64,000 nt of DNA from Gammaproteobacteria bacterium (GCA_022826245.1 JAJDVG010000010.1:70801-134800), one strand, 5' to 3'; positions 4,083 to 61,348 are shown, counted from the first letter of the stretch. Numbers and translations: made by a program. The notes: generated by a model from the sequence alone, not told the origin.

Positions 4083-4631
4083 TCAGATCAACCGTGCGGA
4101 AATCGCCTGCCGCGGCCGGTCCGCCTCGCTCGTACTGCGCCGCGATTTCTTGAGCGCCTTCTTCTTCAGCCGTTGGCGCTTGAGTTCGGAGAGGTAGTCG
4201 ACGAAGAGCTTCCCGTCGAGATGATCGATCTCGTGCTGGACGCAGACCGCGAGCAGGTCCTCGGCCTCGAGCTCGGCGGGCTCACCGTCAAGGTCGAGAT
4301 ACGTGGCCCTGATCCGCTCGGCCCGCTCGACGTAGTCGAAGACGTCCGGAACGGACAGGCAGCCTTCTTCGGAACTCACCGTTCCCTCCGCGAAGACGAT
4401 TTCGGGGTTGATCAGGACGTGCGGCTCGTTGCGTGCCTCGGAGATGTCGATCACGAGAATGCGCTTGCGGACGTTGACCTGGGTCGCGGCCAGGCCGATC
4501 CCCGCGGCGGCGTACATGGTCTCGAGCATGTCGGCTGCCAGCGTGCGGACTTCCGAATCGACTTCCCCGACCGGCTCGGCCCTGAGGCGCAGCCGCTTGT
4601 CGGGATATTCGAGGATTGCGAGTCGTGCCAT
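4083..4631 (-). CDS. def: Peptide deformylase
   Basis: Last 182 codons of track ORF 4083..5999, starting at ATG 4631: [15 protein letters not shown]. The [16 protein letters not shown] and QHEIDHL metal-site motifs are present. Confidence 0.95.
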
Positions 4632-4889
4632 GGTCCTGAAAGCGGGTCGCGGTGCGGGCCGCGGCGGAGAATATCGGCGCAGTATAGCAGCAGGGCCAAG
4701 TGCCGGATTCGCTGGAAACTTCGCCATTTTGCGGCATTTCGCCAGGAAAGCGCGATTGCCGGACGTCCCCGTCGGCACGATGATCGGAATCCCCGATTTC
4801 CATGGGATGAGCCATGCACTCGTCACCGAGGCGACGCGCACGCCAGGCGTTTCGCCCCATGCCGCGCGACTGTCGCCACGGGCTGCTCG

Positions 4890-6002
4890 ATGGCGGCTGA
4901 GGCATGGCTGATCGTCCTGCAGACCCAGCCGTCGGCGCCGGCCGCGTGGCGCAAGGCGCTGCGCAAGGCGGGCTCCGCCGAAGCGCTGCTTGCAACGCCC
5001 GTCCGCGAACTCGTCGGCCGGGGCATACCGCCGGATGCGGCCGCCCGGCTGCGCTCCCCCGATCGGGACGCGCTCGCGCGCTGGCATCGCTGGCTCGACG
5101 AGCCCGGCCACGCTCTGATCACGCTCGACGATTCCGCTTATCCCGCGCAACTGCGCGAGATTCCCGACGCACCGCTCGCGCTGTGGGTCGCGGGCGCAAA
5201 CACGGCGCTGCTGGCCGGGCCGCAGCTTGCGATCGTCGGCAGCCGCAATCCGACATCGGGCGGGCGGGCCAATGCCGCGTACTTCGCCGAGTATCTCAGT
5301 GGCCGCGGCCTGACGATCACGAGCGGACTCGCGACGGGCATCGACAGCGCCGGCCACCGCGGCGCGATCGACGGCGCCGGCGGCACGATCGCGGTGCTCG
5401 GTTGCGGCATCGACAGCGTGTATCCGCGCCGCAACGGCAAACTCGCGGCGCAGATTACGGAGTCCGGGCTGATCGTCTCCGAGTACCCGCCCGGCACACC
5501 GGTGCGCGCTTTCCAGTTCCCGCAACGCAATCGAATCATCGCAGGCCTGTCGCTCGGCACGCTCGTCGTGGAGGCAACGCGGCGCAGCGGTTCGCTGATC
5601 ACCGCGCGCCTTGCCGCGGACTATGGCCGCGAGGTGTTCGCGATCCCGGGCTCCATACACAATCCGCTGGCGAAAGGCTGCCACAAGCTGATCCGCAACG
5701 GGGCCAGCATCGTCGAGGAAGGCGACGACGTACTCGCGGAACTCGCACCGCAGCTCGCTTCCGCCGACCCCGACCGACCGGTCAAATCGCCGGCCCGCGA
5801 GAACCCGCTGGTCGACGATCCGGCCTACGCGAAGCTGCTGGATCTGCTCGGTTTCGAACCCATGCGGGCCGCGGACCTGCTCGAGGCGGCCGGATTGACG
5901 GCAGCAGAGCTTTCCTCCATGCTCCTGCTGCTGGAAATGGGCGGGGTCGTCGAAGCGTTGCCTGGCGCCCGTTACTGCCGCCTGGTGAAAAAAAGCCAAT
6001 GA
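4890..6002 (+). CDS. dprA: DNA-processing protein DprA (Smf)
   Basis: Track ORF 3072..6002 trimmed to ATG 4890. Core motifs are [27 protein letters not shown] and [13 protein letters not shown]. It shares an ATGA overlap with smg and is divergent from def. Confidence 0.9.
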
Positions 6003-6472
6003 AGGAAACAGTACTCGACGTGCTCATGTACCTGTTCGAGACATTCGTCGACAGCGAACTTGAGCCCGAACCGGATCGCAATGAGCTCAGGGACGAACTC
6101 GAACACGCAGGCTTCGGCGCCCGCGAGATCGACCGGGCGCTCGACTGGCTCGACGAACTGAACTCGGTCGAAGTCGCCCCGAGCGATGCGCCGCAAACGG
6201 CAGCGGTCCGCGTCTACGACCGCTACGAGCAGTCCAGGCTCGACCCGCCGTCGCGCGGCTACCTGCTCCACCTGGAACAGATCGGGATTCTCGCGCCGCC
6301 GCACCGCGAACTTGCGATCGACCGGCTGCTTGCGCTCGACACCGTGGAAATCGATATCGAGCACATCAAGTGGGTCGTCATGATGGTCCTGTTCAGCCAA
6401 CCCGGCCACGAGCAGGCGTACGCCCGGATGGAGGATCTCGTGTTCGCCGACGATCCGGCCTGGGTGCACTAG
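5999..6472 (+). CDS. smg: Smg protein (DUF494)
   Basis: ATG 5999 inside track ORF 4904..6472 gives 157 aa: [16 protein letters not shown]...[10 protein letters not shown]. The dprA-smg-topA order is conserved. Confidence 0.85.
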
Positions 6473-6597
6473 GGCCTGCCGTTCCGAGATCATGCGGTCG
6501 GCGCGGATCGGTACTGCAGCGCCCGTCCGGGCACCGGCGTGATGCCGCTCAGGCACGGGACCTGCCGATCGATCCACACCGACTTTCGAATCCAGCC

Positions 6598-9015
6598 GTG
6601 AGCAAGAATCTGGTCATTGTCGAATCGCCCGCCAAGGCGCGGACGATCGAGAAGTATCTGGGCAGGGACTTCGAGGTCCTCGCATCCTACGGGCACGTCC
6701 GCGATCTCGTGCCGAAGGACGGCGCCGTCGACCCCGAACACGGCTTCGCCATGAAGTACCGGCTCATCGACAAGAACAAAAAGCACGTCGAGCGGATCGC
6801 GCGAGCCGTCAGGAAGGCCGACGCCGTCTACCTCGCGACCGACCCCGATCGTGAAGGCGAAGCGATTTCCTGGCACATCCACGAGGTTCTCAAGGAACGC
6901 AAGCTCCTCGATTCGAAGCCCGTCAACCGGGTCGTGTTCCACGAGGTCACGAAACGCGCGATCCAGGAGGCGATCGAGTCGCCGCGACAGCTTTCCGCAC
7001 AACTCGTCAACGCCCAGCAAGCCCGCCGGGCGCTCGACTATCTCGTCGGCTTCAATCTCTCGCCGCTGCTCTGGAAGAAGGTGCGCCGCGGGCTGTCGGC
7101 CGGCCGCGTACAGAGTCCGGCGCTCAGGCTCATCGTCGAGCGCGAGGACGAGATCAACGCCTTCGTGGCGCGGGAGTACTGGACGATCGAAGCCATCGTC
7201 GGGCACAGGGCGCAGGAATTCACCGCCCGCCTGTCCCTGTTCCAAGGCGACAAGGTCGAACAGTTCACGTTCACCGACGAAGACAGCGTCCGCGAGGCCG
7301 AACTGGTCATCGCCGAGACCGCGGCGCCGCCCGGCGAACGCCTCGCCGCCGATGCGCGCGGCGTCCTGACCTGCACGAAGGTCGACAAGAAGCAGCGGCG
7401 GCGGAATCCCCAGCCGCCCTTCATAACCTCGACGCTGCAGCAGGATGCTTCACGCAAGCTCGGCTTCAGCGCGCAAAAAACGATGTCGGTCGCACAACGC
7501 CTTTACGAAGGCGTCGACACCGGCGACGGCTCGATCGGCCTGATCACCTACATGCGAACGGACTCGGTCACGCTCGCCGCAGACGCCGTGAACGAGCTTC
7601 GCAGCGTCATCGCCGAGCGCTACGGCGCGGAGAGCGTCCCCGACCGGCCACGCCAGTACCGTACCCAGGCGCGCAATGCCCAGGAAGCGCACGAAGCCAT
7701 CCGGCCAACCTCGGCGGCCCGCACTCCGGATTCCGTCAGGCCGTATCTGGACAGGGACCAGTACAGGCTCTACGAGCTGATCTGGAAACGCACCATTGCC
7801 TGCCAGATGATCCCGGCGGTCTTCAACACCGTGGGCCTCGATCTCGCCGCGGGGCCGTCGCCGACGCGTACGGCCGTGTTTCGCGCGACCGGGTCGGTGC
7901 TCGTCAATCCGGGCTATCTCGCCGTCTATCGGGAGGGTTCCGACGACAAGGCGCAGGACGACCGGGACAGGATTCTGCCGCCTGTCGCAGAGGGCGAGAC
8001 GCTGCTCCTCAAGGACATCGCGAGCGAGCAGCACTTCACCGAACCGCCGCCGCGCTACTCCGAGGCGACGCTCGTCAAGGCGCTCGAAGAGTTCGGCATC
8101 GGGCGCCCGTCGACCTACGCGTCGATCATTTCAACGCTGCGCAACCGGGAATACGTGGAGATGGACCGCAAGCGATTCGTGCCGACCGATGTCGGCCGCC
8201 TCGTCAACCGTTTCCTCACCGAATTCTTCGCACAGTACGTCGACTACCAGTTCACCGCGAAGATGGAAGACTCGCTCGATGCGGTGTCGCGCGGCGAAAC
8301 CGACTGGGTCCCGTTACTCGACCGGTTCTGGCGGCCGTTCCACGAACTGGTCGAGAAGACGGAGAGTTCGGTGACGCGCGATCAGGTCTCGCCGGCCCGG
8401 GTTCTCGGCGAGGATCCGGGGACCGGCCGCGAAGTCAGCGTGCGCATGGGACGCTACGGCCCCTTCGTACAGCTCGGCACACGCGACGACCCCGAAAAAC
8501 CCCTGTTCGCGAGCCTCAGGCCCGACCAGAAGATGGACGGGATCACTTTCGAGACCGCGCTCGAGCTCATCAAACAGACGCAGTCCGGGCCGCTCGGCGT
8601 CGATCCGGCGAGCGGCCGCGAAGTCAGCGTTCGCGTGGGACGCTACGGCCCCTTCGTCCAGCTCGGCACCCGCGACGACCCCGAAAAACCCCTGTTCGCG
8701 AGCCTCAAGCCCGATCAGGAGATGAACGAGATCACGCTCGAGATTGCGCTCGAGCTGATCGAAGAGAAGCGTCGCGCCGACGCGAGCCGCGTCATACAGG
8801 ATTTCGGCGCAGCCGGCATCCAGGTACTCAAGGGCCGTTACGGCCCCTATGTCACGGACAAGACGAAAAACGCGCGCGTCCCGAAGGAAAGCGACCCGAG
8901 CGAGTTGTCGCTGGAGGAATGCCGGGCGTTGCTGGCGGCGGCCCCGGCGCGCGGCGCGCGCAGGAAGCCGGCGGCGCGCAAGAGAACGTCAAACAAGTCG
9001 CGGCGCGGCAAATGA
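6598..9015 (+). CDS. topA: DNA topoisomerase I
   Basis: Track ORF 6370..9015 trimmed to GTG 6598. The Toprim N-terminus reads VSKNLVIVESPAKARTIEKYLG. The active-site region is LITYMRTDS. The C-terminal domain is built of GRYGP(F/Y)V repeats with no zinc-finger cysteines. Confidence 0.95.
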   Translation: MSKNLVIVESPAKARTIEKYLGRDFEVLASYGHVRDLVPKDGAVDPEHGFAMKYRLIDKNKKHVERIARAVRKADAVYLATDPDREGEAISWHIHEVLKERKLLDSKPVNRVVFHEVTKRAIQEAIESPRQLSAQLVNAQQARRALDYLVGFNLSPLLWKKVRRGLSAGRVQSPALRLIVEREDEINAFVAREYWTIEAIVGHRAQEFTARLSLFQGDKVEQFTFTDEDSVREAELVIAETAAPPGERLAADARGVLTCTKVDKKQRRRNPQPPFITSTLQQDASRKLGFSAQKTMSVAQRLYEGVDTGDGSIGLITYMRTDSVTLAADAVNELRSVIAERYGAESVPDRPRQYRTQARNAQEAHEAIRPTSAARTPDSVRPYLDRDQYRLYELIWKRTIACQMIPAVFNTVGLDLAAGPSPTRTAVFRATGSVLVNPGYLAVYREGSDDKAQDDRDRILPPVAEGETLLLKDIASEQHFTEPPPRYSEATLVKALEEFGIGRPSTYASIISTLRNREYVEMDRKRFVPTDVGRLVNRFLTEFFAQYVDYQFTAKMEDSLDAVSRGETDWVPLLDRFWRPFHELVEKTESSVTRDQVSPARVLGEDPGTGREVSVRMGRYGPFVQLGTRDDPEKPLFASLRPDQKMDGITFETALELIKQTQSGPLGVDPASGREVSVRVGRYGPFVQLGTRDDPEKPLFASLKPDQEMNEITLEIALELIEEKRRADASRVIQDFGAAGIQVLKGRYGPYVTDKTKNARVPKESDPSELSLEECRALLAAAPARGARRKPAARKRTSNKSRRGK
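8425..8760 (+). repeat. Two near-identical 147-nt tandem repeat units inside topA (8425-8571, 8614-8760; period 189 nt)
   Basis: By direct comparison I counted about 10 mismatches in the first ~120 nt. Both units encode GREVSVR(M/V)GRYGPFVQLGTRDDPEKPLFASL(R/K)PDQ. Confidence 0.9.
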
Positions 9016-9045
9016 ACCGCAACATGCGACCAGCGCACTGAACCC

Positions 9046-9603
9046 GTGACGTCGAGATTCCACATCGACCGTGCCGCACGCGCGGCGCTGGCCGGCGGCA
9101 TCGTCGCCTACCCCACGGAAGCCGTATACGGGCTCGGCTGCCTGCCCTTCGACCACGACGCCGTCAGCCGCCTCATCGCGCTCAAGCGTCGCTCGGCACG
9201 CAAGGGCTTTCTGCTGATAGCGGCCGAGTTCGAGCAGCTCGAGTACATCGTCAGCCTGCCGCGCGGAGCGCTGCGCGAGGAAATCCTCGCGAGCTGGCCC
9301 GGCCCCGTCACCTGGGCGCTGCCGGCCCGCTCCCCCATGCCGGACTGGCTCACGGGCGGCAGGGACACGGTCGCCGTCCGCATCACGAGTCACCCTCTGG
9401 CAAGCGCGCTATGCCGACGCACGGGCCATGCGCTCGTCTCGACGAGCGCGAACCTGAGCGGGCGAGAACCGATCAGGAGCGCGCTGCGCCTGCGTCGCGA
9501 GCTCGGGGCGTTCGTCGACTGCATCCTCCCGGGCGCGCTCGGCGACCTGTCCAGACCGACCGCCATCCGCGACGGACGCACGGGCGCGAGCCTTAGGGCA
9601 TAG
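9046..9603 (+). CDS. tsaC: L-threonylcarbamoyladenylate synthase TsaC (YrdC family)
   Basis: Track ORF of 185 aa with AYPTEAVYGLGC and VSTSANLSG motifs. It follows topA as in other Gammaproteobacteria. Confidence 0.9.
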   Translation: MTSRFHIDRAARAALAGGIVAYPTEAVYGLGCLPFDHDAVSRLIALKRRSARKGFLLIAAEFEQLEYIVSLPRGALREEILASWPGPVTWALPARSPMPDWLTGGRDTVAVRITSHPLASALCRRTGHALVSTSANLSGREPIRSALRLRRELGAFVDCILPGALGDLSRPTAIRDGRTGASLRA

Positions 9604-9668
9604 AACGCGCGTTTTCGCTACATTCGATCGCTACCGCAGGACCGGAGACTGCCGCGCGGCGCAAGGCC

Positions 9669-9731
9669 GTGGACCGCGACATCAGCCTGCTGCTTTACCT
9701 CAACGACGAATACGAAGGCGGCGAGCTGCTT
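9669..9731 (+). pseudogene. Short relic of a 2OG-Fe(II) oxygenase (PiuC/YbiX- or P4H-like) gene
   Basis: Translation gives (R)KAVDRDISLLLYLNDEYEGGELL. This mirrors E. coli YbiX [22 protein letters not shown] and TFLIYLNDDYDLGETEF of the gene at 10545. High GC3 is kept only over these ~20 codons, and no start or remaining domain is present. Confidence 0.3.
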
Positions 9732-9755
9732 CGTGGTCGAAGCCGTGCGAGTCGT

Positions 9756-9761
9756 TATAAT
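9756..9761 (+). promoter_or_regulatory. Candidate -10 box (TATAAT) for the 9852 gene
   Basis: A perfect TATAAT lies in an otherwise GC-rich intergenic stretch, 91 nt upstream of ATG 9852. No convincing -35 element is present. Confidence 0.3.
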
Positions 9762-9851
9762 CGCCGGACGTCGGCACGCCCGTTCGACTGGCCGGGTTTC
9801 ACGGCGGCAGTTCGCGATCCGGCCGGACCGGCGCACGGTGTCCGGAGGCAG

Positions 9852-10529
9852 ATGTTGCGGAGCATAAGGTGCATTTTGGCCGTTACCGCGTCCCTCGCGC
9901 CGCTTCTGGCGGGCAAGGCGGCATTTGCCCAGACGGACGCCGAGCGCCTCGAAGCATTGCGCGGCTGCCTCGGCATCGAGTCCGATGCGGCGCGCCTGCT
10001 GTGCTTCGAGAGTATCGTCAGCGCGGAGCCTGACGCGGGGACGACCGCGAACGCACGCGTCGAACCCACGGCCGAAGCCGAGCGCCCCGGTTCGCCCGGC
10101 GCGTCCGAGACGGCTGACGGGACCAGTGAGCATCTCGCCGCTGATCGCGAGCAGCCCCCTCCGGCAACGGCGGAACCTGCCGGAATCGACGCGGTAGCGG
10201 CAGCCGATGTCTCCACAGCGGACGAATCCGCGGCGGCGACCATTCCGGTAGAGGACGATGCAAGTCAAAGCCGCCGGGACCTGGATGACGCATTCGCTGT
10301 CGACGAGACCGAGACCCTCGTCATCGTCGAAACGGGAGCGCTGCGCCGCGGCAACGCGACTTTCCTCACCGACGACGGCAGGTTGTTCGTGCAGACGAGC
10401 GGGCCAACCTCCAGGAACCTGCCGCCCGTCCCGTTCGAAGCGACGCTCGAAGACGGTGCGTTCGGCAGCGTGTTCCTGGTCGCCCCGTCCGCCAGACTGC
10501 GAATCCGCGTCGCAGAGCAAACGGACTAG
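9852..10529 (+). CDS. Hypothetical exported protein
   Basis: ATG 9852 inside track ORF 9669..10529. The signal peptide reads MLRSIRCILAVTASLAPLLAGKAAFA|Q. An Ala/Glu/Asp-rich linker is followed by a C-terminal globular part. I do not recognise the family. Confidence 0.6.
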   Translation: MLRSIRCILAVTASLAPLLAGKAAFAQTDAERLEALRGCLGIESDAARLLCFESIVSAEPDAGTTANARVEPTAEAERPGSPGASETADGTSEHLAADREQPPPATAEPAGIDAVAAADVSTADESAAATIPVEDDASQSRRDLDDAFAVDETETLVIVETGALRRGNATFLTDDGRLFVQTSGPTSRNLPPVPFEATLEDGAFGSVFLVAPSARLRIRVAEQTD

Positions 10530-10544
10530 CCGGAGCTGCCACGG

Positions 10545-11609
10545 ATGCGCAGCGCCGCCGAGGAACTCGCTCTTGCCGCGGTGTGCGACGCGAAGGGCGC
10601 GCATGACGACGCCGTCAACGCGCTCGCGCGCGCGGTCCGATTCGGCAGCGTCGAAGCCAAGACGCAGCTCGGCAAGCGCCTGGTCGCGGGCAACAACGCT
10701 CCGCTGCTGCCGACCGAGGGCGCCGGGCTGCTGATCGAAGCGGTTAACGACGGCAGCGCGGAGGCTGCCGCCAGGCTTGCTGTTCTCGCGGCGGCCGGGG
10801 TCTATGTGGAACCCGGTCTCGATCACGCGCTGAAGCTCCTGGCCCTGTCCGCGCAACGCGGCTGGCGCCCGGCGCAAACCCAACTGCTTGCGCTGACCGA
10901 TGATCGTGGTCTCGCAGCAGCAATCAACGACGGCGCCCCTCCCGCCAACCGCTGGCAACGCGTGGCCGACAGCATTGACGTCGACGGCTGGTCACGGGCG
11001 CCCGCGGGCAGAAACCTGCACGAGTCACCGCGCATCTGCCTGTTCGAGAAGCTGATCCCGATCGAAGTCTGCGGCTGGCTGATCGATGTTTCGGGGGAGC
11101 GTCTCAACCGCGCACTCGTCTACGACGCGGTCGCCCGCGAGGACTACGCGAGCAGTAACCGAACGAACAGTTGGGCGCAGTTCGACCTGATGAGCAGCGA
11201 GCTGATCCACCTGCTCGTGCAACACCGCATGGCAGCCGCGAGCGGCTTCCCGCTGCGCAACATGGAAGCGACAGCCGTCCTGCACTATGCCGTCGGCGAG
11301 GAAATAACGAACCACTACGATTTCGTCGATCCGGACATCCCGAACTACGAGCAGGAACTCGAAACGAACGGGCAGCGCGTCATGACGTTTCTGATCTACC
11401 TGAACGATGACTACGATCTCGGCGAGACCGAGTTTCCGGAACTCGGCGTTTCGCACAAGGGCCGCCGGGGCGAGGGCTTGTACTTCGTAAACGCCCTCGA
11501 CGACGGTTCGCCCGATCTTCGTACCGTTCACGCCGGACGTCCCACCGCCAACGGCGAGAAGTGGATCGTGTCGCAGTTCATCCGTAACCGTCGCGTGCTA
11601 GGCGTATAG
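10545..11609 (+). CDS. Sel1-repeat / prolyl 4-hydroxylase-type 2OG-Fe(II) oxygenase fusion protein
   Basis: Track ORF of 354 aa. The N-terminal half has Sel1-like repeats (AKTQLGKRLVAG; AAARLAVLAAAGVYVEPGLDHALKLLALSAQRG). The C-terminal half has H-x-D (NHYD), TFLIYLNDDYDLGETEF, a distal His (TVHAG) and GEKWIVSQF. Confidence 0.8.
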   Translation: MRSAAEELALAAVCDAKGAHDDAVNALARAVRFGSVEAKTQLGKRLVAGNNAPLLPTEGAGLLIEAVNDGSAEAAARLAVLAAAGVYVEPGLDHALKLLALSAQRGWRPAQTQLLALTDDRGLAAAINDGAPPANRWQRVADSIDVDGWSRAPAGRNLHESPRICLFEKLIPIEVCGWLIDVSGERLNRALVYDAVAREDYASSNRTNSWAQFDLMSSELIHLLVQHRMAAASGFPLRNMEATAVLHYAVGEEITNHYDFVDPDIPNYEQELETNGQRVMTFLIYLNDDYDLGETEFPELGVSHKGRRGEGLYFVNALDDGSPDLRTVHAGRPTANGEKWIVSQFIRNRRVLGV

Positions 11610-11832
11610 CGAGTGTCGTCGGAAACGCATCGCTGACGCACATTCATCGCAAAAACGCAACAACCGTTTCTGGTTAATTTGTGCAGTTTTTGTTAGGCTG
11701 CGGTGGCCGAACGGAGCCGGGATTCATAGCCATAACGAACGTGCGCCGCTAAAGACAACCCGGCCCGGATCCATCGGCTGCCGCGGCGCGGTTGTTCCCT
11801 TACCACGCACAGGATCGAAGGAGAGAATTCGC

Positions 11833-14800
11833 ATGGATTCCAGGAGACTGCTACGCAAGCGCCACCTCGCAGTGGCGATTTCGGCCATGGTTGGCGGGGG
11901 CGCGCTCGCCCAGGAACCCATCGAGGAAGTGACCGTGACCGGCTCGCGAATCGTGAGACGAGACCTGACCGCGCCGAGCCCGATCCTGACAGTCACGAGC
12001 GAGAACCTCGTGAACACGAGCAGCACCGGCGTGGAAGCCGTGCTCAATCAACTGCCGCAGTTCGTGCCGGCCGGCACCGAGTTCGGCGGCGGCATTCAGA
12101 ACGGCGCGACGAACTCGCCCGGCGCGGCGACGCTCAACATGCGCGGCATGGGCACCAACCGCAACCTCGTCCTGATCGACGGGCGGCGCGCCCAGCCGGT
12201 CAACGCCTCGCTGGTCGTTGACGTCAACACGATTCCGGCGTCGGCCATCGCGAATGTCGAGGTTATCACGGGCGGCGCGTCCGCGGTGTACGGGCCTGAC
12301 GCGCTCGCCGGCGTTACCAACTTCATCCTCAAGGACGATTTCGAAGGCATCGAGATCGGTATGCAGACGGGTCAGACCGGCGAAGGCGACGGCGCGGAGT
12401 CCAATTTCAACGTGCTGATCGGCATGAACGCCGACGACGGCCGCGGCAACGTCATGGTCGGCATCGACTGGACCAAACGCGACGAGATCTTCCAGCGCGA
12501 TCGCGACTTCTACATGAACGGCTGGATGGACACGGGCAACGCGGGCGGCCAGTTCATGCAACCGAGCACCTGGGGCGCCAACGAGGGCGGCATTCCGGGA
12601 GGCCGGAACCTGCCATCCCAGGAAGCCGTCGACGCGCTCTTCGCGCGCTACGGCGTGGCGCCCGGCACGGTCGGCAGGACTTCGGAGTTCCGTTTCAACC
12701 CGGACGGTTCGATATTCGTGACGCAGGGCGGGATCGGTTACAACGGGCCGCTCAACTGCATGAGCGGCTGCGGACCGTATACGGCGATCAAGCTGCTCGA
12801 CAACGGCAACCTCGACCAGGTCAACACGACCGGTTTCCTGTCCACGCCGCTCGAACGGCACTCGGCGTTCATGCGCGGCCGCTACCAGGTCGCGGACAAC
12901 CTGAGCGTCTTCGTGCAGGGCAACTTCAGCGACATCGAGGTCGGTCAGCGCGGCGGCATTCCTCCGGCAATCACCGTGTGGCAGGCGCCGATCCCGCGCG
13001 ACGGACGCGCGCTGCCGGATGACCTCAACACGCTGCTCGACTCAAGACCCAACCCCGACGGCCACTGGAGCCTCTATCGCGTGCTCGATTACAACGGCCC
13101 GATCCAGGCGACCAACAAGAACGAGGTCTGGCAACTGCAGGCGGGCGTCGAAGGCGAGGTCGGCGAGACCATCACCTGGGAAGCGTATATCTCGACCGGC
13201 GAGACCGACATCGAGGCCGTAAACGACCGCATGCCGTCGCTGCAACGCTACCAGTCGCTCGTGGCACAGCCCAATTTTGGCCAGGGCGGCTTTTTCCGCG
13301 GTCTCGGCCGCGGTTATTCGCAGTCCTGCCCGTCCGGGCTGCCGGTGTTCGAGCAGTTCACGCCGGACGAGAGCTGTCTTGAGAGCTTCGACTCGCGCAT
13401 GATCAACAAGAGCGTCCTGACCCAGGACATCATCGAGTTCAACATGCAGGGCGCAGGCTTCAACCTGCCCGGCGGCGAATCCGGCTGGGCGGTCGGCGCC
13501 TCGCGTCGCGACAATTCCTACGCGTTCCGCCCCGGTAATCCGGTCAATCACATTCTCGACAACCCGGTCGGCATCTTCGCCTCGAACGCGACGGGCGGCG
13601 AGACGGACGTCACCGAGATCTACGGCGAAATGCTGCTGCCGGTGCTCGATCAGTTCTCGGTCGAACTCGGCTACCGCTACTCGGACTTCAACACGGCCGG
13701 CGGTCACGACACGTACAAGACGCTGTTCACCTGGAACGCAACCGATACGGTCACGTTCCGCGGCGGTTACCAGTTCGCGACCCGCGCGCCGAACGTGGCG
13801 GAGCTCTTTACCGCCGCAACGCAGGTCGTCGTGTTCCATCCGGAACAGGACCCCTGTTCGGTCACGACACTGTCGCCCTGGGGCAACGTACCCGACAACC
13901 CGGACCGGGAACAGGTCATCGATCTCTGCCGCGCGATCATCGGCAACAACACCTCCGGTTTCGATACCCAGACCTACAGCATTACCGGCATCGCCGGTCC
14001 GAAGGGCTTCCACAGGCAGAACCCGCCGTTCTTCCCGCTCGAGATCGAGCTCCGGCAGGGCAACCCGAATGTCGGTCCGGAAACGGGCGATACCTATACC
14101 TTCGGCGCGGTCTGGACCGAAGCCTTCGGCGCCGACGGCCTGACGCTCACGGCCGACATCTACCGGATCGAACTGACGGATGCGATCTCGCCGATCGCGG
14201 CCTGGGTCGTCTACAACAACTGCTTCAACTACGACGGCCAGACGAACCCGAGCTACGACGTCAACAACCAGTTCTGTCAAATGATCCGCCGCAACCCGGT
14301 TTCGGGCGACCGCTCGGAAGTCGACGCGCCGTTCTTCAATCTCGGCCTCATCGAGACTCAGGGTATCGACGTCAACGTCAACTGGATCAAGGACATCGGT
14401 CCCGGCACCTTCAGCGTGAACTCGATCATCAACTTCCTGGACAACTACGAATACCAGGTGGTGCAGGGCCAGGACGCCGTGGTTGCCACTGGCACGCTCG
14501 ATGAAGGGGGCATGTACGAGATCCAGGCGCTGACCCGGTTCGGCTACACCTGGAACAATCTGAATCTGGGCGTGAGCTGGCGTCACCTCGATGCCATCAA
14601 GGCTGCCGCCGCGGCGTCAAGCCCCACCACGACGATTCAGGGCACCGGAGCGTACGATGTGTTCAACTTCTACGGGTCGTACAACTGGAACCGATACACG
14701 ATACGTTTCGGGATCGACAACTTGCTCGAAGAGGATCCCCGGGTGATCGGCGCCAACCCCGCCGGCGGGGATACGAACACCAACATCACGCTTCCCGCGC

Positions 14801-54765: not shown

Positions 54766-54832
54766 CGCGGTCCCTCACAGGGCTTGGCTCCCCAGTTTAC
54801 TGCAAAGTCCGTCCCAAGTCGCCGGTTAGCCT

Positions 54833-54846
54833 TGTCTAATTAGACA
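54833..54846. repeat. Perfect 14-bp palindrome TGTCTAATTAGACA
   Basis: Read directly from the sequence. It sits about 70 nt upstream of the rpoZ start (minus strand) and about 40 nt upstream of the transposase-like remnant (plus strand). Confidence 0.9.
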
Positions 54847-54887
54847 TGAGCCTGTAGTTGGGCGTCTGGGATCATCGGAGGATGATC

Positions 54888-55100
54888 GTGACGTTACAGA
54901 CGCGACGGGTGCGGATCCTGGAACAGGTCCGGGCCTTTGTCGAGGACACAGTTGACGCGCCCGTTCGCCCGCCATCGGAAAACCGGATGCTACGAAAACG
55001 CGAGCGAGCGCGCGGTGAAACTCATCTCGTGTCAACTTCGGCAAACTTTGCCGACAGCGCGACGACAATATCCTTGAATTCCCTTTCCATGAATTTCTGA
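54888..55100 (+). pseudogene. Possible N-terminal remnant of a DDE transposase/integrase-core gene (similarity limited to ~54888-54990)
   Basis: GGAGG lies 6 nt upstream of GTG 54888. The translation (V)TLQTRRVRILEQVRAFVEDTVDAPVRPP recalls the '..T.EQVRAFL.G...V.F..P' N-termini of some IS transposases as I remember them. The rest of the 80-aa track ORF merely overlaps the opposite-strand nuclease gene. Confidence 0.25.
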
Positions 55101-56230
55101 AACCAAGACTCCAAGTCCTCCTTGATTTTTTCTGCCGGCTGTCGATCAAGAGTAGCCGGCTCAACCATGTTCCTGCTGTAAATCGTGGTGTATTTATCGT
55201 AGAGCTTCTTGCCGCAACCCGGAAACAACTTCGGATTGCTTTGAGCAAACTCCCAAATTTCCTTTCGCAAAGTTACATTCTCAGACGGGCCGATAACGAG
55301 GCACATCTTGATACTCGTCCGAACGTTCTTGATCTCAAACAGCAAGCTATGTCCGCTCTTCGTCCATTGATCCGCAGACGTAGCGTTGCAGGCTGGGATT
55401 TCCTTCCATTCAATGGGAAAGAAGTTAACGGCCGACTTCGTTCCACGCACAAGTTCGATCCGCTCGCCCTCTTTCGATACCATCGCCTTGGCAAATTCCG
55501 ATCTTTCCAGCTGATCATCCGGTGTTTGTTCGAATATGAAATCGAGTGCAGTCTTGTGCTTTCGATACACCGCCTTCGCAAGTTCTACAAGATCGTCGTC
55601 CATCACAATGTTTCTCCGTAGCATTCGGGCGTAATGATGCAGAGTCATGGCGACCGCTTCGCCAAGGCTTTCTTCATACTTAGCAACGAGAGATTCGACA
55701 CTCGACAAGATATCCTGGTATCCGACCGGCAGCCAATTTTCGTCAGATGGATCTTCATTTTCCGGAGTCAAGTAGACGAGCACATGGCGAAAGTCGCCAT
55801 AGCGTTTCTCCAGTGTCTCCCGGTAACGCACCAACTGACCCGAGTGCTCACCGGAGTCGACCTTGTTCTCGATCGCCAACAGGAACCGTCGTGTTTCGTC
55901 AATACACAGAACGTCTATATTGTGACGCTCTCGAAGCACGAGGCAATCACTAAAATCCTTCAGCACGATTTCGCCGAGGGACAGTGGTCGAGACTCGGAT
56001 GAAATTGCCTTGACCGCAGTTAGCAGAAACTGAACGAGGAATTCGGCTCCCAGTCCATGTGTTTCCGTAGGGTCAAGCAGAAACGCCAGAAAATCCGAAT
56101 GGCGCTCCTCGGAGCGGGTGTGCCGAATAGCCTCGAAAATGTTGAAGCCGCCAAGGCGCGTTTCGATTTGTCCGATCCCATCCTCATCGAGCAATAAAGA
56201 TTCGATAGCCGATCGAATTTGCTTCGTCAT
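55022..56230 (-). CDS. PD-(D/E)XK nuclease family protein (PDDEXK_4-like)
   Basis: Track ORF 55022..56263 (GTG), with ATG 56230 preferred (GAGAAG 6 nt upstream). The N-terminus reads GGFNIFEAIRHTRSEERHSDFLAFLLDPTETHGLGAEFL. The catalytic pattern is IDVLCID...LAIENKVD (D106, E121, K123; nt 55862-55915). Local G+C is low (sampled lines 45-50%). Confidence 0.75.
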   Translation of the reverse strand: MTKQIRSAIESLLLDEDGIGQIETRLGGFNIFEAIRHTRSEERHSDFLAFLLDPTETHGLGAEFLVQFLLTAVKAISSESRPLSLGEIVLKDFSDCLVLRERHNIDVLCIDETRRFLLAIENKVDSGEHSGQLVRYRETLEKRYGDFRHVLVYLTPENEDPSDENWLPVGYQDILSSVESLVAKYEESLGEAVAMTLHHYARMLRRNIVMDDDLVELAKAVYRKHKTALDFIFEQTPDDQLERSEFAKAMVSKEGERIELVRGTKSAVNFFPIEWKEIPACNATSADQWTKSGHSLLFEIKNVRTSIKMCLVIGPSENVTLRKEIWEFAQSNPKLFPGCGKKLYDKYTTIYSRNMVEPATLDRQPAEKIKEDLESWFQKFMEREFKDIVVALSAKFAEVDTR

Positions 56231-56370
56231 GATTCGCTTCTCGATCAGCCTGTCGGATTGCACGCACTTGGGGACCGGGGCGCATTGGTCAGAGCAATGC
56301 AGTTTCTCGCGTCAAACAACCAGTTCGCCTTGTCGGGACGTTCCTGCGCCAGTAATTTGCCAGCTTCGCG

Positions 56371-56399
56371 ATTATATGGCGTTGACATGAGCACGCCAA
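56371..56399 (-). promoter_or_regulatory. Near-consensus sigma70-type promoter upstream of the nuclease gene
   Basis: The minus strand reads TTGGCG (56399-56394), a 17-nt spacer, then TATAAT (56376-56371). It lies about 140 nt upstream of ATG 56230, just after the stop of the preceding gene. Confidence 0.5.
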
Positions 56400-56408
56400 T
56401 AAGCAAAG

Positions 56409-57212
56409 TCACGCGGCCAGTCGCTTGATTTTTCTCTGCAAGTCCCTGGTTGCTTCCAGCGACGAAACAGCCGTGCCAGCAACATTTGTCAGCCGGGCCA
56501 GATCGAGCCGAGGAATAGCCTGTTGGTCCGCATAAACAATAACCGACTCGAACGCAAGTTCGTGAAGCAGAAAGTGGGACAACATGATGGTTGTCAGACG
56601 GGCCTTGTCACGGCCTGGAACGCCATAAAGAAATACAGGTATGCCGTCACGGCCTTCCAGCCGATAATCAACAGGATAGTTGGTTCCATCAGGAATTTCG
56701 ATTGGTATGTAATCTGCGTCGATATTGTCTTCATCTACCATCGTGAACAGCATGTCTTTCAAATCGTCGTAGAACGTTGAAACCACGCGATCACGACTGA
56801 GAAAAGTCAGGTCGTAGATCTTCGTCAGTGCTTGACCGAGCGCAAAAAGGGCATCGGCAACCTGATGAGGTGATGCGGTGATCGCAAATGCACCATCGCG
56901 TTCTTCGATACCGGTCTCGCGGACGATCTGTTCCCGCAGAGAAGCACGCGGCCCGTCGAAGAACGCGTCAACGTCGTGCTCGTAACTGATGTGCATTAGC
57001 GTATGGCCCCGATCGCTTAGCGTGACACCACCTGATCGGGACTCGGAAAGATAAATAGGATAACGGTCTCCATCCGGAAAGGTAAACGGAGAGTCCAGCA
57101 TGTGCACACCGTCGTCCCGCCTATGAATGCTGACACTTGCACACAGTCGTTCACAAAGCTGCTTTTCCAGCCGCGAATAGTCAATTGCCATCGAAGATAT
57201 CCCTCTGATCAT
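56409..57212 (-). CDS. Hypothetical protein with DUF1828-like N-terminal and DUF1829-like C-terminal halves
   Basis: Track ORF of 267 aa. An alternative ATG 57191 has AGAGGGA 8 nt upstream. The N-terminal half (LDSPFTFPDGDRYPIYLSESRSGGVTLSDRGHTL...) fits my recollection of DUF1828. The C-terminal half (YPVDYRLEGRDGIPVFLYGVPGRDKARL...) fits DUF1829. G+C is low. Confidence 0.55.
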   Translation of the reverse strand: MIRGISSMAIDYSRLEKQLCERLCASVSIHRRDDGVHMLDSPFTFPDGDRYPIYLSESRSGGVTLSDRGHTLMHISYEHDVDAFFDGPRASLREQIVRETGIEERDGAFAITASPHQVADALFALGQALTKIYDLTFLSRDRVVSTFYDDLKDMLFTMVDEDNIDADYIPIEIPDGTNYPVDYRLEGRDGIPVFLYGVPGRDKARLTTIMLSHFLLHELAFESVIVYADQQAIPRLDLARLTNVAGTAVSSLEATRDLQRKIKRLAA

Positions 57213-57648
57213 GCTGGGCGCTTAAGCCCTGCACACCGCAATCATCGACTAAGCACGCCAGCGCGCCTTCCAAAGTCCTGTATCGGTTCGTCTCTTCGGC
57301 ATTGCTGTCAATTCTCCTGCCGGCAGAGATCGCCTGCACCGAAGCTTGATGAATGTGGCAGCGGTAACGAATCTCTCCATGAGCGTGACTGGCGCCATTG
57401 TAACGAACGAGGCTGAGGGGTCTCGAACCGCGTCTTACCAATTGCAGTCCACAGGAAAAATCTGTGTCATCGTTGAGGTTCTGACGAAGGTAGATAAGGT
57501 AGGAAGTACCGTCCGAGGATTCTGCTCTGTAGTTTCGCTGCTTGTGTCGGCCAGGTTTTTCCTTCTACCGAGCGCCGGGATTCCTCACAGTCTTTTCAAC
57601 CGATCGATGATGATCCAGCTCGTCATGCGACAGCAGCAACTCAGTCAT
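57181..57648 (-). pseudogene. Small ORF (~155 codons) interrupted by an in-frame TAG at 57565-57567; family not recognised
   Basis: Track ORFs 57565..57774 and 57181..57441 are in the same frame. My translation reads MTELLLSHDELDHHRSVEKTVRNPGAR*KEKPGRHKQRNYRAESSDGTSYLIYLRQNLNDDTDFSCGLQLVRRGSRPLSLVRYNGASHAHGEIRYRCHIHQAS...AEETNRYRTLEGALACLVDDCGV. Its stop overlaps the next gene's start. Confidence 0.4.
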
Positions 57649-57864
57649 CGTACTTGGGCTTCCTTGTGCACCGTGCTCGCTATACGCACTCGGGGACGAT
57701 GGTCGCCGAGTATACTCACCGCCGACAGTGGTCGCCACGTGATTCAAGCGGCCCCTTTCCGGGCATCGCTGCAACGCTCCGCACGGCTATCCAGGTGCCG
57801 GTCGAACGGCTGCATGTGCCCCTGCGAACGTCCGCCAACCGCAGCCTGCCTTGTTTTGCGGGCG

Positions 57865-57887
57865 TTATCCACAGAATCTGTGTATAA
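57865..57887. promoter_or_regulatory. Inverted pair of DnaA-box-like 9-mers (23-bp near-palindrome)
   Basis: TTATCCACA (57865-57873) is a perfect DnaA-box consensus. TGTGTATAA (57879-57887) is the reverse complement of TTATACACA, which fits TTATNCACA. The arms pair at 10 of 11 positions. A third TCCACAGA copy (as TCTGTGGA) lies at 57889-57896. Confidence 0.4.
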
Positions 57888-58108
57888 GTCTGTGGAAGCG
57901 GCTTTGATCGGGACTCCGAAATCCAGCCGCTACAATCATTTCCGCCAATTCGGCCCAGAAACGCAAAACCGGGCCTTCTATTAACAATCAATAACTTATA
58001 AGCACATCGCCGGTTCAGCCGCAAGAAAGTGCCGCAATAGGCTTGTTTCTCGCGCAAAACGTGGCCGGATGTGCATAAATCGTGGCCGGCGGTCGCCCGC
58101 ACGGGCGG

Positions 58109-58732
58109 TCAGGGGTGGGCAAGCAGGCCTTTGGAGAGCAGCAATTCCTTGAGCCGGCGCGCGGCCCGGTAGCGGTGGCTGACGGCGTTCTTGACGTGTG
58201 GATCGAGCTCGGCGGCCGTCGTGCCGAATGCCGGATCGTGGAAGACCGGGTCGTAGCCGAATCCGCCGCTCCCGGCGGGTTCGAGCGCGATGCGGCCGCG
58301 CCACTCGCCGTGCGCGACGAGCGGCGCGGGCTCGTCGGCGCGGATCAGCGCGACGATAACGCAATGAAAGCACGCGGCGCGCTGTTCCTCGGCCGTGCCT
58401 TCGAGGGCTTCGAGCAGACGGGCGACATTGGCGGCGGCATCGGCATTTGCCCCAGCGAACCGCGCCGAGCGGACCCCGGGCGCGCCGTCGAGCGCGTCGA
58501 CCGTCAGTCCGGAGTCGTCGGCGATCGCGGGCAAGCCGGTCAGGGCCGCGGCATGGCGTGCCTTGATCAGCGCGTTCTCGACGAAGCTTGCGCCCGTTTC
58601 GGCTGCACTATCGACGCCGAATTCGGACTGCGGAACGATATCGAGCCCGGTATCCGCGAGCAGCGAGCGAAACTCCCTGAGCTTGCCCGCGTTGCCGCTC
58701 GCCAGAACCCAGCGGGTTCCAGCGCCGGTCAT
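58109..58732 (-). CDS. rdgB: Non-canonical purine NTP pyrophosphatase RdgB
   Basis: Track ORF 58109..59332 trimmed to ATG 58732 (ATGA overlap with the rph stop), giving 207 aa. Motifs are [12 protein letters not shown] and GGFGYDPVF. Confidence 0.9.
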
Positions 58733-59445
58733 TTCCCGAGCGCCGCGGCTTGCGCCGCGATCAGCGTCTCGATGCCCTTGCCCGCCAGGTCGAGCAACGC
58801 ATCGAGTTCGTTGCGCAGGAATGCGTGTCCCTCGGCCGTGCCCTGGACTTCCACGAAGCCCCCGGCCTCGTTCATGACCACGTTCATGTCGGTCTCGGCA
58901 TCGGAATCCTCGACATAATCGAGGTCGAGCACGGGGACGCCATCCACGATCCCGACCGACACGGCAGCGACCTGACCGTGGATGGGATCGCCGTCGATGC
59001 TTCGGCTCGCAAGCAGGTGGCGCGCCGCGAGCGCGAGCGCCACGTAGCCGCCGGAGATGGCGGCGGTGCGCGTGCCGCCGTCCGCCTGCAGCACGTCGCA
59101 ATCGATCGTGACCGTGCGCTCGCCGAGCGCCGCAAGGTCGACGACCGAGCGCAGGCTGCGGCCGATGAGGCGCTGGATCTCGAGCGTGCGCCCGCCCTGC
59201 CGGCCGCGCGCGGCTTCGCGCGGTGCTCGCGTGTGCGTGGCGCGCGGCAGCATGCCGTATTCGGCCGTCACCCAGCCCTGTCCGCGGCCCTTCAGGAACT
59301 GCGGGATCCGGTCCTCGATCGAGGCCGTGCACAGCACGTGCGTCGACCCGAACTCGGCGAGCACCGAACCCTCCGCATGTTTAGTGAAGCCCGGAACGAA
59401 ACGCACCGGGCGCATTTGATCGTCGCGGCGTCCGCTCGCGCGCAT
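58729..59445 (-). CDS. rph: Ribonuclease PH
   Basis: Track ORF 58729..60351 trimmed to ATG 59445, giving 238 aa. Motifs are [28 protein letters not shown] and [11 protein letters not shown]. Confidence 0.95.
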
Positions 59446-59664
59446 GATGTGCTCTCCGTAGGTTGGGGGGTGCCGCAAGCGGCAAAGGCAAATTTTAGCG
59501 CACTTCCCCGTGTTGCCGACGCGGCCGCTCGCTTGCGCGCGCGTACGGCGTCTCCCCGCAACGCCGCGGCGGGACCGGGATCGACCGGCAGCGGAATCGC
59601 CGACCGATGCGCGATAGACTTGTCGCCCGGAATACCTCTCGATTTCATTCGTGGACAAGGCACG

Positions 59665-60525
59665 ATGCCTCACAGCATGACGGGATTCGCGGCGGCGGCC
59701 ATCGTCGTCAAGCCGGTTGAACTCAACTGGGAACTGCGCAGCGTCAATCACCGCTTTCTCGACGTGCGCCTTCGCCTGCCCGACGAATTGCGCCACGCCG
59801 AAGCCGAATACCGCGACGTCATCGCCGCAGGCGTCAGGCGCGGGAGGGTCGAGTGCTCGCTCAAGGTGACGCCGTTGACTGCCGACTCCTCGACGGCGGA
59901 CGTTGACACCGGCGTGCTCGCGGGACTCGCGCGCCTGCAGGACGCCGTGCGCCGCGAAGTTCCCGACGCGAGCCCGTTCGCAGTCGCCGAATTGCTGCGC
60001 TGGTCGGGCGTGCTCAAGGCGCCCGAAGCCGCCGCCCTGCTCGAACCGGCCCGGCGCTGCCTGACGGAGGCGCTCGAGAGTCTCGGACGCGCGCGCCGCC
60101 GGGAGGGGGAGCGCATCGCCGAACTGCTCGTCGAACGCTGCGACGCGATCGCCTCGCTCGTGTCGGCAGTGCGTCCGCTGCTCGCGGAGGCCGAACAGGG
60201 CTACCGCGACAAGCTCACGGAGCGCTTCGAGCGGCTCGACATCAAGGCGCATCCGGAGCGCCTCGAACAGGAGCTCGTGCTCGTCGCCCAGCGCCTCGAC
60301 GTGAGCGAGGAAGTCGACCGCCTCGACGCGCACATCGCCGAGATTCGTCACGTGCTGGGCCGCGACGAGCCCGTGGGACGGCGGCTCGACTTTCTGATCC
60401 AGGAGCTCAACCGGGAAGCCAACACGCTTGCCTCGAAGGTAAACGATGCCGAGCTCACACGCTCGGCCGTGGACATCAAGGTACTCATCGAACAGATGCG
60501 CGAGCAGGTGCAGAACCTGGAGTGA
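59665..60525 (+). CDS. yicC: YicC-family stress-induced protein
   Basis: ATG 59665 inside track ORF 58750..60525. [11 protein letters not shown]...[12 protein letters not shown] parallels E. coli YicC MIRSMTAYARR...WEMRSVNQRYLE. The C-terminus reads [13 protein letters not shown]. Confidence 0.9.
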
Positions 60526-60527
60526 GG

Positions 60528-61172
60528 ATGTCCGCAGCAGTTCCAGGGCGAGGCCGGTTCATCGTGCTCGCCGCGCCGTCCGGCGCGGGCAAGACCTCGC
60601 TGGTGCGCGAGCTTTTGCGGCGAAATCCGGATCTCAGGTTCTCCGTGTCTTATACGACACGCCCCCGTCGTCGCGAGGAAGTCGACGGCGAGGACTACCT
60701 TTTCGTGAGCCGGGAGGAGTTCGGGCAGATGGTCGAAGCGGGCGCGTTCCTCGAGCACGCGGAGGTCTTTGGCCACTGCTACGGCACCAGCCACGACCAT
60801 GTCGAATCGCTGCGCGCCGGCGGTCATACGGTCATGCTCGAGATCGACTGGCAGGGCGCGCGCCAGATTCGCGAAGCGGTCCCCGAAGCGACGAGCGTCT
60901 TCATACTGCCGCCGAGCATGGACGATCTCGAAAACCGTCTGCGCGGGCGCGGTACTGATTCCGACGAGACGATCGAGCGCCGGCTCAGCGACGCGGTCGG
61001 CGACATGACGCACTGGGACGAATTCGACTACGCGCTGATCAACGACGACCTCGAACGCGCGGCCGACGAACTCGCCGCTATCGTGAGCGGGCGCGACGGA
61101 GCGCACAGGACGGGCTCGGAAGCGCTGCGCGCGCGGATCGAGGCCATCCTCGACGATGCGGCGACCCGTTAG
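60528..61172 (+). CDS. gmk: Guanylate kinase
   Basis: Track ORF 60522..61172 (GTG), with ATG 60528 preferred (GGAG 5 nt upstream). It has the P-loop [10 protein letters not shown], plus [20 protein letters not shown] and EIDWQGA. Confidence 0.95.
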
Positions 61173-61348
61173 CTTCCGGCGCCCCTCGGACGCGGGAAAG
61201 CTGCGGCAACCGGGTCCGATCCGATACTTGGACAAGCCTGATCGAATTGCTCGACAGAGCTGTGGGCAGAGTCGGGATCGGTACCGGAACCAAGCTTGTG
61301 TTTGGCGTGTTCGGGCAGTATCCTCTGCCGCCCGCCGGGGTACGACTC

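Follow-up and report, generated by a model that had tools for sequence, protein, structure and literature searches.

Positions 54825 to 57742 of the 64,000-nucleotide stretch analysed here (the window; Gammaproteobacteria bacterium, GCA_022826245.1 JAJDVG010000010.1:70801-134800) are occupied by an insert that holds three minus-strand genes only, which we call A, B and the nuclease gene. The insert is a small, recently acquired island, and we consider it likely to be a defence islet in which two independent candidate anti-phage modules, the nuclease (module 1) and the A+B pair (module 2), travel together in one lineage. The three genes had already been recognized in an earlier reading of the window (the sequence-only reading), which took them for a single three-gene cassette. 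The features of the region are listed below.

54825..57742 (2,918 bp), no strand: the island insert, delimited by blastn of island-free contigs against the window, by its junctions and by G+C content
57181..57648, minus strand: A gene, 155 codons, divergent DUF6978/PDC-M24A-like (phrog_27326; homologues of 155 aa)
56409..57191, minus strand: B gene, 260 aa, intact, with an N-terminal DUF1828 domain and a C-terminal domain without assignment (PF08861, phrog_5059, PDC-M24B)
56231..56408 (178 nt), minus strand: spacer between the two modules, searched with a promoter scan
55022..56230 (ATG at 56230), minus strand: stand-alone PD-(D/E)XK nuclease, 402 aa (Pfam PDDEXK_4, PADLOC PDC-S26)
54825..55021 (197 bp), no strand: tail past the nuclease stop codon, unmatched in L086-L092, with open reading frames (ORFs) that have no Pfam or plasmid matches
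57743..61286 (3,544 bp), inverted relative to island-free strains: native rdgB-rph-yicC-gmk segment with intergenic DNA, given as context and lying outside the island

The limits of the island were set by comparison with strains that do not carry it. In blastn searches against the window, homology to the island-free contigs L174, L176, L177 and L181 ended at 54824 and restarted at 57743. Contigs both with and without the island were retrieved when the flanking RpoZ protein was looked up by exact match. An identical RpoZ and flanks that are 98–99.9% identical were thus found in strains without 54825–57742, where gmk directly adjoins rpoZ (L176, L177, L180 and L181 at 98–99.9% identity; L174 at 94–96%), while seven assemblies, the window included, carry the island. 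In 300-nt windows, the G+C content was 0.49–0.55 across approximately 54.95–57.65 kb versus 0.61–0.75 in the flanks, and it was 0.524 in the exact insert versus 0.663 in the remainder of the window. The drop reported in the sequence-only reading is therefore real, although slightly less extreme than the 45–50% given there. Likewise, the G+C content at third codon positions (GC3) was 0.54–0.58 in the three island genes versus 0.82–0.88 in spoT, rph and gmk. Because near-identical strains lack the insert, the breakpoints are exact and both G+C and GC3 are foreign, the island was acquired horizontally, as had been proposed; the presence/absence comparison suggested for 54.8–58.1 kb is the one that gave 54825–57742. 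The ratio of nonsynonymous to synonymous divergence (dN/dS) was 0.07–0.20 over the three genes, indicating purifying selection on all of them.

None of the marks of an insertion sequence or transposon (transposase, terminal inverted repeats, target duplication) was found in the island. The 54825 and 57742 junctions have neither terminal inverted repeats nor a target-site duplication, and no transposase was detected by Pfam among the ORFs of the 54.83–55.10 kb flank or by tblastn against 72,556 plasmids, so that a transposase-like remnant suspected beside the genes had to be given up. No structured RNA was found in the island (Rfam, E≤0.1), and none of its three proteins matched NCBIfam. As had been observed before, the three genes encode no methyltransferase, ATPase or helicase; with no methyltransferase domain in the genes of the 2,918-bp insert, the cognate methyltransferase that defines restriction-modification (RM) is missing.

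The nuclease had been placed in the PDDEXK_4 branch, and the profile searches bore this out. Its residues 40–212 matched PF14281 with 98 bits (cut-off 22.3; E=8.6e-28), and its match to the PADLOC profile PDLC04977, which models PDC-S26, covered positions 1–394 of 400 (residues 12–405; E=1.1e-115). In an alignment of 25 homologues, with identities down to 35%, the residues F29, N30, F32, E41, S45, H58, D106, E121, N122 and K123 were invariant. The predicted catalytic residues D106, E121 and K123 are intact, and the N-terminal F-N-x-F...E...S...H signature is likewise invariant; the dN/dS of the gene was 0.19–0.20. The nuclease gene can also stand alone, without an obligatory partner beside it, as 35 of the 37 loci informative on this point do not have the A+B pair. 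Every feature that could be tested in the sequence agrees with assignment of the nuclease to PDC-S26/PDDEXK_4. A block of 1.25 kb (56261–55017) recurs alone and in unrelated surroundings in L087, L088, L090 and L092 at 84–86% nucleotide identity, adjoining a HigB-like toxin and a helix-turn-helix gene in L087 and L088, and GmrSD and a DDE transposase in L090. By profile search of PDB sequences, no solved relative was found for the nuclease, nor for the A or B families. Because it comes without a cognate methyltransferase, the nuclease would most likely be a DNA endonuclease that is infection-triggered or modification-dependent, and its C-terminal ~200 residues may gate the N-terminal catalytic domain.

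The A ORF is interrupted in the window but represents a real gene family. The portion past the interruption matched phrog_27326 (E=6e-30), and the homologues are proteins of 155 aa. The interruption is an in-frame TAG (57567–57565) at codon 28 (TGG>TAG, G>A at 57566), and it replaces W28, a residue invariant in the A homologues. Five assemblies from the population of the window and ~98.6–99.4% identical to it (L001, L002, L003, L173 and L175) have TGG at this codon, and the codon-28 base is their sole difference from the window in the 468-nt ORF. The TAG is common to the window and L172, an assembly with 65 differences from the window in 14.3 kb. Because five assemblies have TGG and a separate assembly also has TAG, this is a segregating nonsense mutation and not a sequencing error. 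The A gene is intact in five of the seven assemblies carrying the island, and in the strain of the window module 2 is probably inactive through W28*, with B left as an orphan.

The identity of A could be approached through its relatives. The A protein of the window had no match in Pfam, including DUF6978 (PF22398), and none in PADLOC, where its near relatives were unmatched as well. Two homologues about 52–53% identical to it (P0223 and P0228) scored 24.9–29.1 bits against DUF6978, below the cut-off of 29.6, and two closer ones (P0121 and P0128) had no DUF6978 match. The A homologue of Pseudomonas phages, which is 36% identical, reached 46.2 bits against the same cut-off and also matched PDC-M24A (E=1.2e-8). 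Taken together, the A protein of the window appears to be a divergent branch of DUF6978. Its AlphaFold model is confident, with a predicted local distance difference test (pLDDT) score of 91.5 and a predicted template modelling (pTM) score of 0.86, and is mostly composed of β-strands plus three helices. No fold match to this model was found in the PDB (best E=0.35, TM about 0.27), and the only match, a weak one (E=4e-3, TM 0.56), was to a viral protein that is itself uncharacterised. The invariant residues of the family are K19, W28, K31, D60, D63, S65, C66, R82, N84, H88, H90, H98, H100 and K112, which is suggestive of a polar cluster forming an active or binding site. In a fusion ("Rosetta stone") search, almost every one of the 1,119 representative clusters was stand-alone. 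A rare fusion is P0471 (342 aa), in which an AAA_14/PDC-S01-like ATPase at the N terminus is followed by a DUF6978-like (A-type) domain at the C terminus. This hints at an A fold able to serve as an effector or sensor domain joined to an NTPase, and is insufficient for inferring a function.

In the public annotation of several assemblies, an antisense ORF of 211 aa takes the place of A, even where A is intact (57346–57984 on the plus strand of the window, 9208–9843 in L001, and 3782–4417 in L172, L173 and L175). Because the public calls annotate this antisense ORF instead, the A family is probably under-annotated in the databases.

Downstream of A, the B protein matched DUF1828 (PF08861) over residues 41–132 with 66.4 bits (cut-off 22; E=2.9e-18), phrog_5059 over its full length (E=8.7e-36) and PDC-M24B partially, over about 116 of the 256 profile positions (E=4.7e-14). 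The sequence-only reading had proposed DUF1828 plus DUF1829 for this protein. While the former is present, DUF1829 (PF08862) was rejected, as neither the whole protein (E≤0.1) nor residues 131–260 searched alone (E≤10) gave a match. Two start codons had been offered as well, ATG 57212 and ATG 57191, and since the homologues (n=1,002) are almost all 260 aa long, the true start is ATG 57191, which has AGAGGGA 8 nt upstream. The dN/dS of B was 0.07–0.14. In its structural model, the N-terminal DUF1828 domain was of moderate quality and the C-terminal half poor (pLDDT <50), and no fold match for B was found in the PDB.

The A and B genes are closely linked in many phyla. As had been seen before, the TGA of A (57183–57181) overlaps the start of B (ATG, 57191–57189), with the two ORFs sharing 11 nt, and the same geometry was observed in L004 and L005 (A 7544–8011, B 8001–8783). 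Two small genes with overlapping stop and start codons have the arrangement of a type II toxin-antitoxin system; neither A nor B matched a known toxin or antitoxin family (Pfam, NCBIfam, PDB). A one-genome-per-species scan with the profile of the DUF1828 protein gave 291 relatives, and the counts presented here were made on the best 80 loci. In about 70 of these 80 loci, A is immediately upstream of B. When the state of the A ORF was scored with a classifier anchored on high-scoring segment pairs, 55 of the 80 loci, all of them with a full-length B, had an intact A, 18 a degraded one and 7 none. Loss of A with retention of B is hence recurrent among loci picked through B (25 of 80), and the W28* allele of the window fits the pattern. 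Such a pattern would be expected if A were an effector that is costly or toxic, with B to neutralise or sense it.

Because the Pseudomonas phage homologues of the pair match PDC-M24A (1.2e-8) and PDC-M24B (1.3e-13), and the B protein of the window matches PDC-M24B, we regard the pair as a divergent and distantly related branch of the two-gene candidate PDC-M24. The view that the gene combination matches none of the named systems does not hold, as the nuclease also has its counterpart in PDC-S26. Across the metagenome-assembled genomes (MAGs) L006–L085, B is 57–77% identical. The MAGs bearing B were assigned to Alpha- and Gammaproteobacteria, Binatia, Bryobacterales, Vicinamibacterales, Acidimicrobiia, Chloroflexota, Latescibacterota, Entotheonellaceae, Nitrospirales, Spirochaetia and Spongiisociaceae, and the names of these taxa suggest marine-sponge symbionts with heavy cross-phylum exchange in one habitat.

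A recurrent RM partner, identified by Pfam and PADLOC, was found within 4 kb of the pair in 27 of the 80 loci: 12 with a type IIG enzyme, 11 with Res and Mod, three with Mod only and one with Res only. The type IIG partner (about 1,360 aa; Eco57I/PF07669 and PADLOC REase_MTase_IIG) is directly upstream of the pair. In the type III-like loci, the pair sits between Res (about 1,040 aa; ResIII plus an endonuclease domain) and Mod (about 950–1,090 aa; N6_N4_Mtase, PADLOC MTase_III with E=0). For example, in L061 the order res-A-B-mod is formed by Res (4097–7531), A (7528–8001), B (8001–8783) and Mod (8810–12028), with overlapping stops and starts. In pairwise comparisons, the identity of B rose and fell with that of its partners, which spanned 29% to 98% (r=0.96 for Res, 0.93 for Mod and 0.75 for the type IIG enzyme); such comparisons are phylogenetically non-independent. 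Such co-divergence argues for a long-standing linkage between B and its RM partners.

In the remaining 53 loci, without a recurrent RM partner, the nearest neighbours include HmaA/HmaB, DrmA/DrmD (DISARM), BrxH (BREX) helicases, AbiEi, reverse transcriptases and type I/II methyltransferases. Upstream of the pair in L022 (2294–6109) is a reverse-transcriptase protein of 1,271 aa (RVT_1), and A is degraded at that locus. Some type III operons are followed by further genes. Directly after res-A-B-mod, IetA and IetS (PADLOC E=9e-73 and 2e-32) occupy 12059–15622 in L061 and are also present in L071 and L081, and UvrD-like helicases follow the operon in L068 and L074; these loci are multi-system defence islands.

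The pair is also found in temperate phages. In the Pseudomonas phages 5399, 5371 and phita81A, it is directly downstream of cI and on the same strand. Scans of viral contigs returned nothing with the B profile and one locus with the A profile, the IMG/VR contig L182, which carries the pair. In the Pseudomonas phage PACT201 (L183), all that is left is a fragment of A at 3455–3869, annotated as a 78-aa coding sequence, and a search for B homologues at E≤1e-5 found none; this is another case of decay of the module. By guilt by association, these contexts point to a role of the pair in defence or exclusion. For each of the two modules, its own context and its candidate status in PADLOC make a defence-type role plausible.

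Whether the three genes form one system was tested through their linkage elsewhere. No nuclease homologue was found within 8 kb of the pair in any of the 80 pair loci. Nuclease loci were obtained from a metagenome profile scan (80) and exact lookups (5), and 37 of these 85 were informative, as they extended 1.4 kb or more upstream. The pair was beside the nuclease in only two of the 37, L086 and L089, whose nucleases are close to that of the window (80–83% amino-acid identity). The proposal of a three-gene cassette had named missing linkage in other taxa as its own refutation, and on this count it fails; both exceptions are close relatives. At the DNA level, the pair (about 57751–56390) and the nuclease (56261–55017) form separate blocks with sharp homology boundaries, and most of the spacer (about 56389–56262) lies outside both. 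L086 has the entire block of 2,725 bp, spacer included, and L089 has both blocks with a different spacer. The synonymous divergence (dS) of the pair was 0.27–0.35 versus L086 and 0.69–0.88 versus L089, while that of the nuclease was 0.66 and 0.46, respectively, which is discordant with the pair: the pair of the window is nearer to L086 and its nuclease nearer to L089. Because of the linkage counts, the separate DNA blocks and the discordant dS, the trio is best described as two modules that lie side by side and have moved jointly, as a mini-island, within a single narrow lineage, with no obligate three-gene system, and the nuclease would not be a subunit of the A+B pair. The spacer does contain the sigma-70-like TTGGCG-17-TATAAT reported previously (56399–56371); with four promoter-like sites in the region versus 2.1±1.5 expected, this is weak evidence for a promoter.

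As to mechanism, the pair may be a second-line module expressed by the lysogen or host, of a toxin/antitoxin-like abortive-infection type. In such a module A, with its invariant His/Asp/Lys/Cys cluster, could be the costly effector, and B the sensor or neutraliser of A. Several points weigh against reading the island as two independent defence modules. L086 and L089 also have the trio as a block, with other chromosomal surroundings, and a common function of the three genes is possible within the sub-lineage of the window, L086 and L089. The searchable literature holds no experimental anti-phage phenotype for PDC-S26 or PDC-M24, and no functional study of PDC-S26, PDC-M24, DUF1828 or DUF6978 was found in it, so that the label of defence comes from guilt by association. 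The roles of effector (A) and neutraliser (B) are ones that we infer, and the count of A decay behind them is biased by the choice of loci through B, for which reason the asymmetry is not yet established. Furthermore, the A protein of the window and its close homologues fall below the PDC-M24A and Pfam DUF6978 thresholds, the model of B is poor in its C-terminal half, and no fold match informs the chemistry of A or B.

Four other explanations, and a combination of them, were weighed against this one. The pair could be a non-autonomous RM accessory, either a guard that fires upon inhibition of the RM enzyme, as PrrC does with EcoprrI, or a regulator of restriction, and in the window only a vestige parted from its RM partner. 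We regard this as possible, if rather unlikely. The tight res-A-B-mod operon with its overlapping stop and start codons, the presence of type III or type IIG enzymes near the pair at 27 of the 80 loci and the strong co-divergence with Res, Mod and type IIG would all fit, as would the methylation-based nature of the other neighbours (Hma, DISARM, BREX helicases, type I/II methyltransferases) and the decay of A in the window, where there is no RM partner. Nevertheless, 53 of the 80 loci have no recurrent RM partner, the phage pair follows cI with no RM gene, and the correlations, being non-independent, could merely reflect co-transfer. Distinctly unlikely is a reading in which A and B serve addiction alone, as a toxin-antitoxin module that stabilises mobile islands and has no anti-phage role, with the nuclease as a lone restriction enzyme, type IV-like or orphan. 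For it speak the small size and translational coupling of the two genes, their horizontal spread across phyla, their location in variable islands and prophages and the repeated loss of one partner with retention of the other; however, A and B show no likeness to known toxin or antitoxin families, and the fixed position in RM operons and the rexAB-like place after cI fit exclusion or defence better.

The three genes could also be taken as one three-component system in which the pair senses or regulates and the PDDEXK_4 nuclease is the effector. The gene order and orientation are the same in the window lineage, L086 and L089 despite different flanks, L086 has the full 2,725-bp block with its spacer, and elsewhere the pair adjoins other PD-(D/E)XK-bearing enzymes (type IIG, type III Res). 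Against these stand the linkage counts (0/80 and 35/37), the separate homology blocks, the replaced spacer of L089 and the discordant dS; moreover, the PADLOC model that the nuclease matches along its entire length is that of a single-gene candidate, and in the window and L172 the nuclease is still under purifying selection with A knocked out. We therefore find this explanation highly improbable. A combined scheme, in which the DUF6978+DUF1828 pair is a guard wired into RM that causes abortive infection on restriction failure, and has been re-partnered here with a methylase-less PDDEXK_4 nuclease to give a new three-component variant, is very unlikely as well. Least credible of all is a view of the island as junk in decay that currently does nothing in the window genome. 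Its nonsense allele of A, its dispensability, as seen from the island-free strains, and its lack of mobility genes could be cited for this, yet B and the nuclease keep their full length and have a dN/dS of 0.07–0.20, A is intact in five of the seven island assemblies, and the catalytic residues of the nuclease are intact. An acquired islet of two co-travelling defence modules thus remains the explanation that we favour.

The DNA next to the island has also been rearranged. L176 and L181 align to 57743–61286 in an orientation opposite to that of their flanks. The order in island-free strains is rpmE(-), rdgB(-), rph(-), yicC(+), gmk(+), rpoZ(+), spoT, that is, the canonical gmk-rpoZ-spoT junction. 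The presence of the island therefore coincides with the inversion of the neighbouring rdgB-rph-yicC-gmk segment of 3,544 bp, and the broken core-gene junction described in the sequence-only reading results from the insert plus this inversion. The island occupies one of the inversion breakpoints and the other has ~5 nt of filler (61287–61291); no repeats able to explain the inversion were found at the junctions. Within the segment is the REINTERPRETED DnaA-box palindrome, formed by TTATCCACA at 57865–57873 and TTATACACA at 57879–57887, an inverted pair 5 nt apart. With a third box at 58070–58078, there are three perfect TTATNCACA boxes in 57865–58078, all within 215 bp of intergenic DNA; the 64-kb window has three matches altogether, versus 0.16 expected. 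The palindrome had been taken as flanking the cassette. It does exist, but it was rejected as a feature of the island: the boxes sit in native DNA that is present also in island-free strains, there between rpmE and rdgB. The cluster is possibly a DnaA-titrating or regulatory site.

With respect to known systems, the nuclease shares with PDC-S26 the full-length match, the size of about 400 aa, the N-terminal PD-(D/E)XK domain with D/E-x-K, and the stand-alone occurrence in variable islands. No structural difference was found; what distinguishes it is its place beside a PDC-M24-like pair, seen only in the window lineage and L086/L089. PDC-M24 (A of about 146–166 aa, B of about 255 aa) has the same gene order and sizes as our pair and DUF1828 in B. 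It differs in that the A of the window is unmatched and a pseudogene here, the match of B is partial, and the window-type branch is strongly tied to type III/type IIG RM operons. A pair of the window type is probably missed by PADLOC.

Two other systems offer analogies. In phage lambda, rexA and rexB form a two-gene exclusion system, expressed by the lysogen and located downstream of cI, and the two-gene module of the Pseudomonas phages is in the equivalent place after cI, on the same strand. However, A and B have no sequence or fold similarity to RexA/RexB, and RexB is a membrane protein while membrane features were noted for neither A nor B, so that the likeness would be positional only. PrrC, a single anticodon nuclease inside the type Ic locus EcoprrI, is a guard embedded in an RM system. 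Like it, A and B are accessory genes built into an RM operon, with which they co-diverge; unlike it, they are two unrelated proteins found inside type III or beside type IIG loci, and no ABC-ATPase or anticodon-nuclease domain was detected in the island proteins by Pfam or NCBIfam. Finally, DUF1829, the domain that Pfam commonly pairs with the DUF1828 of B, was newly implicated in defence by the DefensePredictor system DS-6/HipAD, whose B subunit has DUF3037 plus DUF1829 (PMC13092281). The two systems are unrelated; the B protein of the window has DUF1828 without DUF1829 and no HipA-like kinase partner.

The result for the window is mainly corrective, since an apparent three-gene novelty becomes two catalogued candidates side by side, one of them broken. 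The A+B pair embedded in RM operons is the lead worth following, and is better studied where it is intact. The pair, exchanged among uncultured bacteria of ten or more phyla or classes and accessible in a tractable host through P. aeruginosa lysogens of phage 5399 or phita81A, offers a concrete system for how accessory genes cooperate with restriction enzymes.

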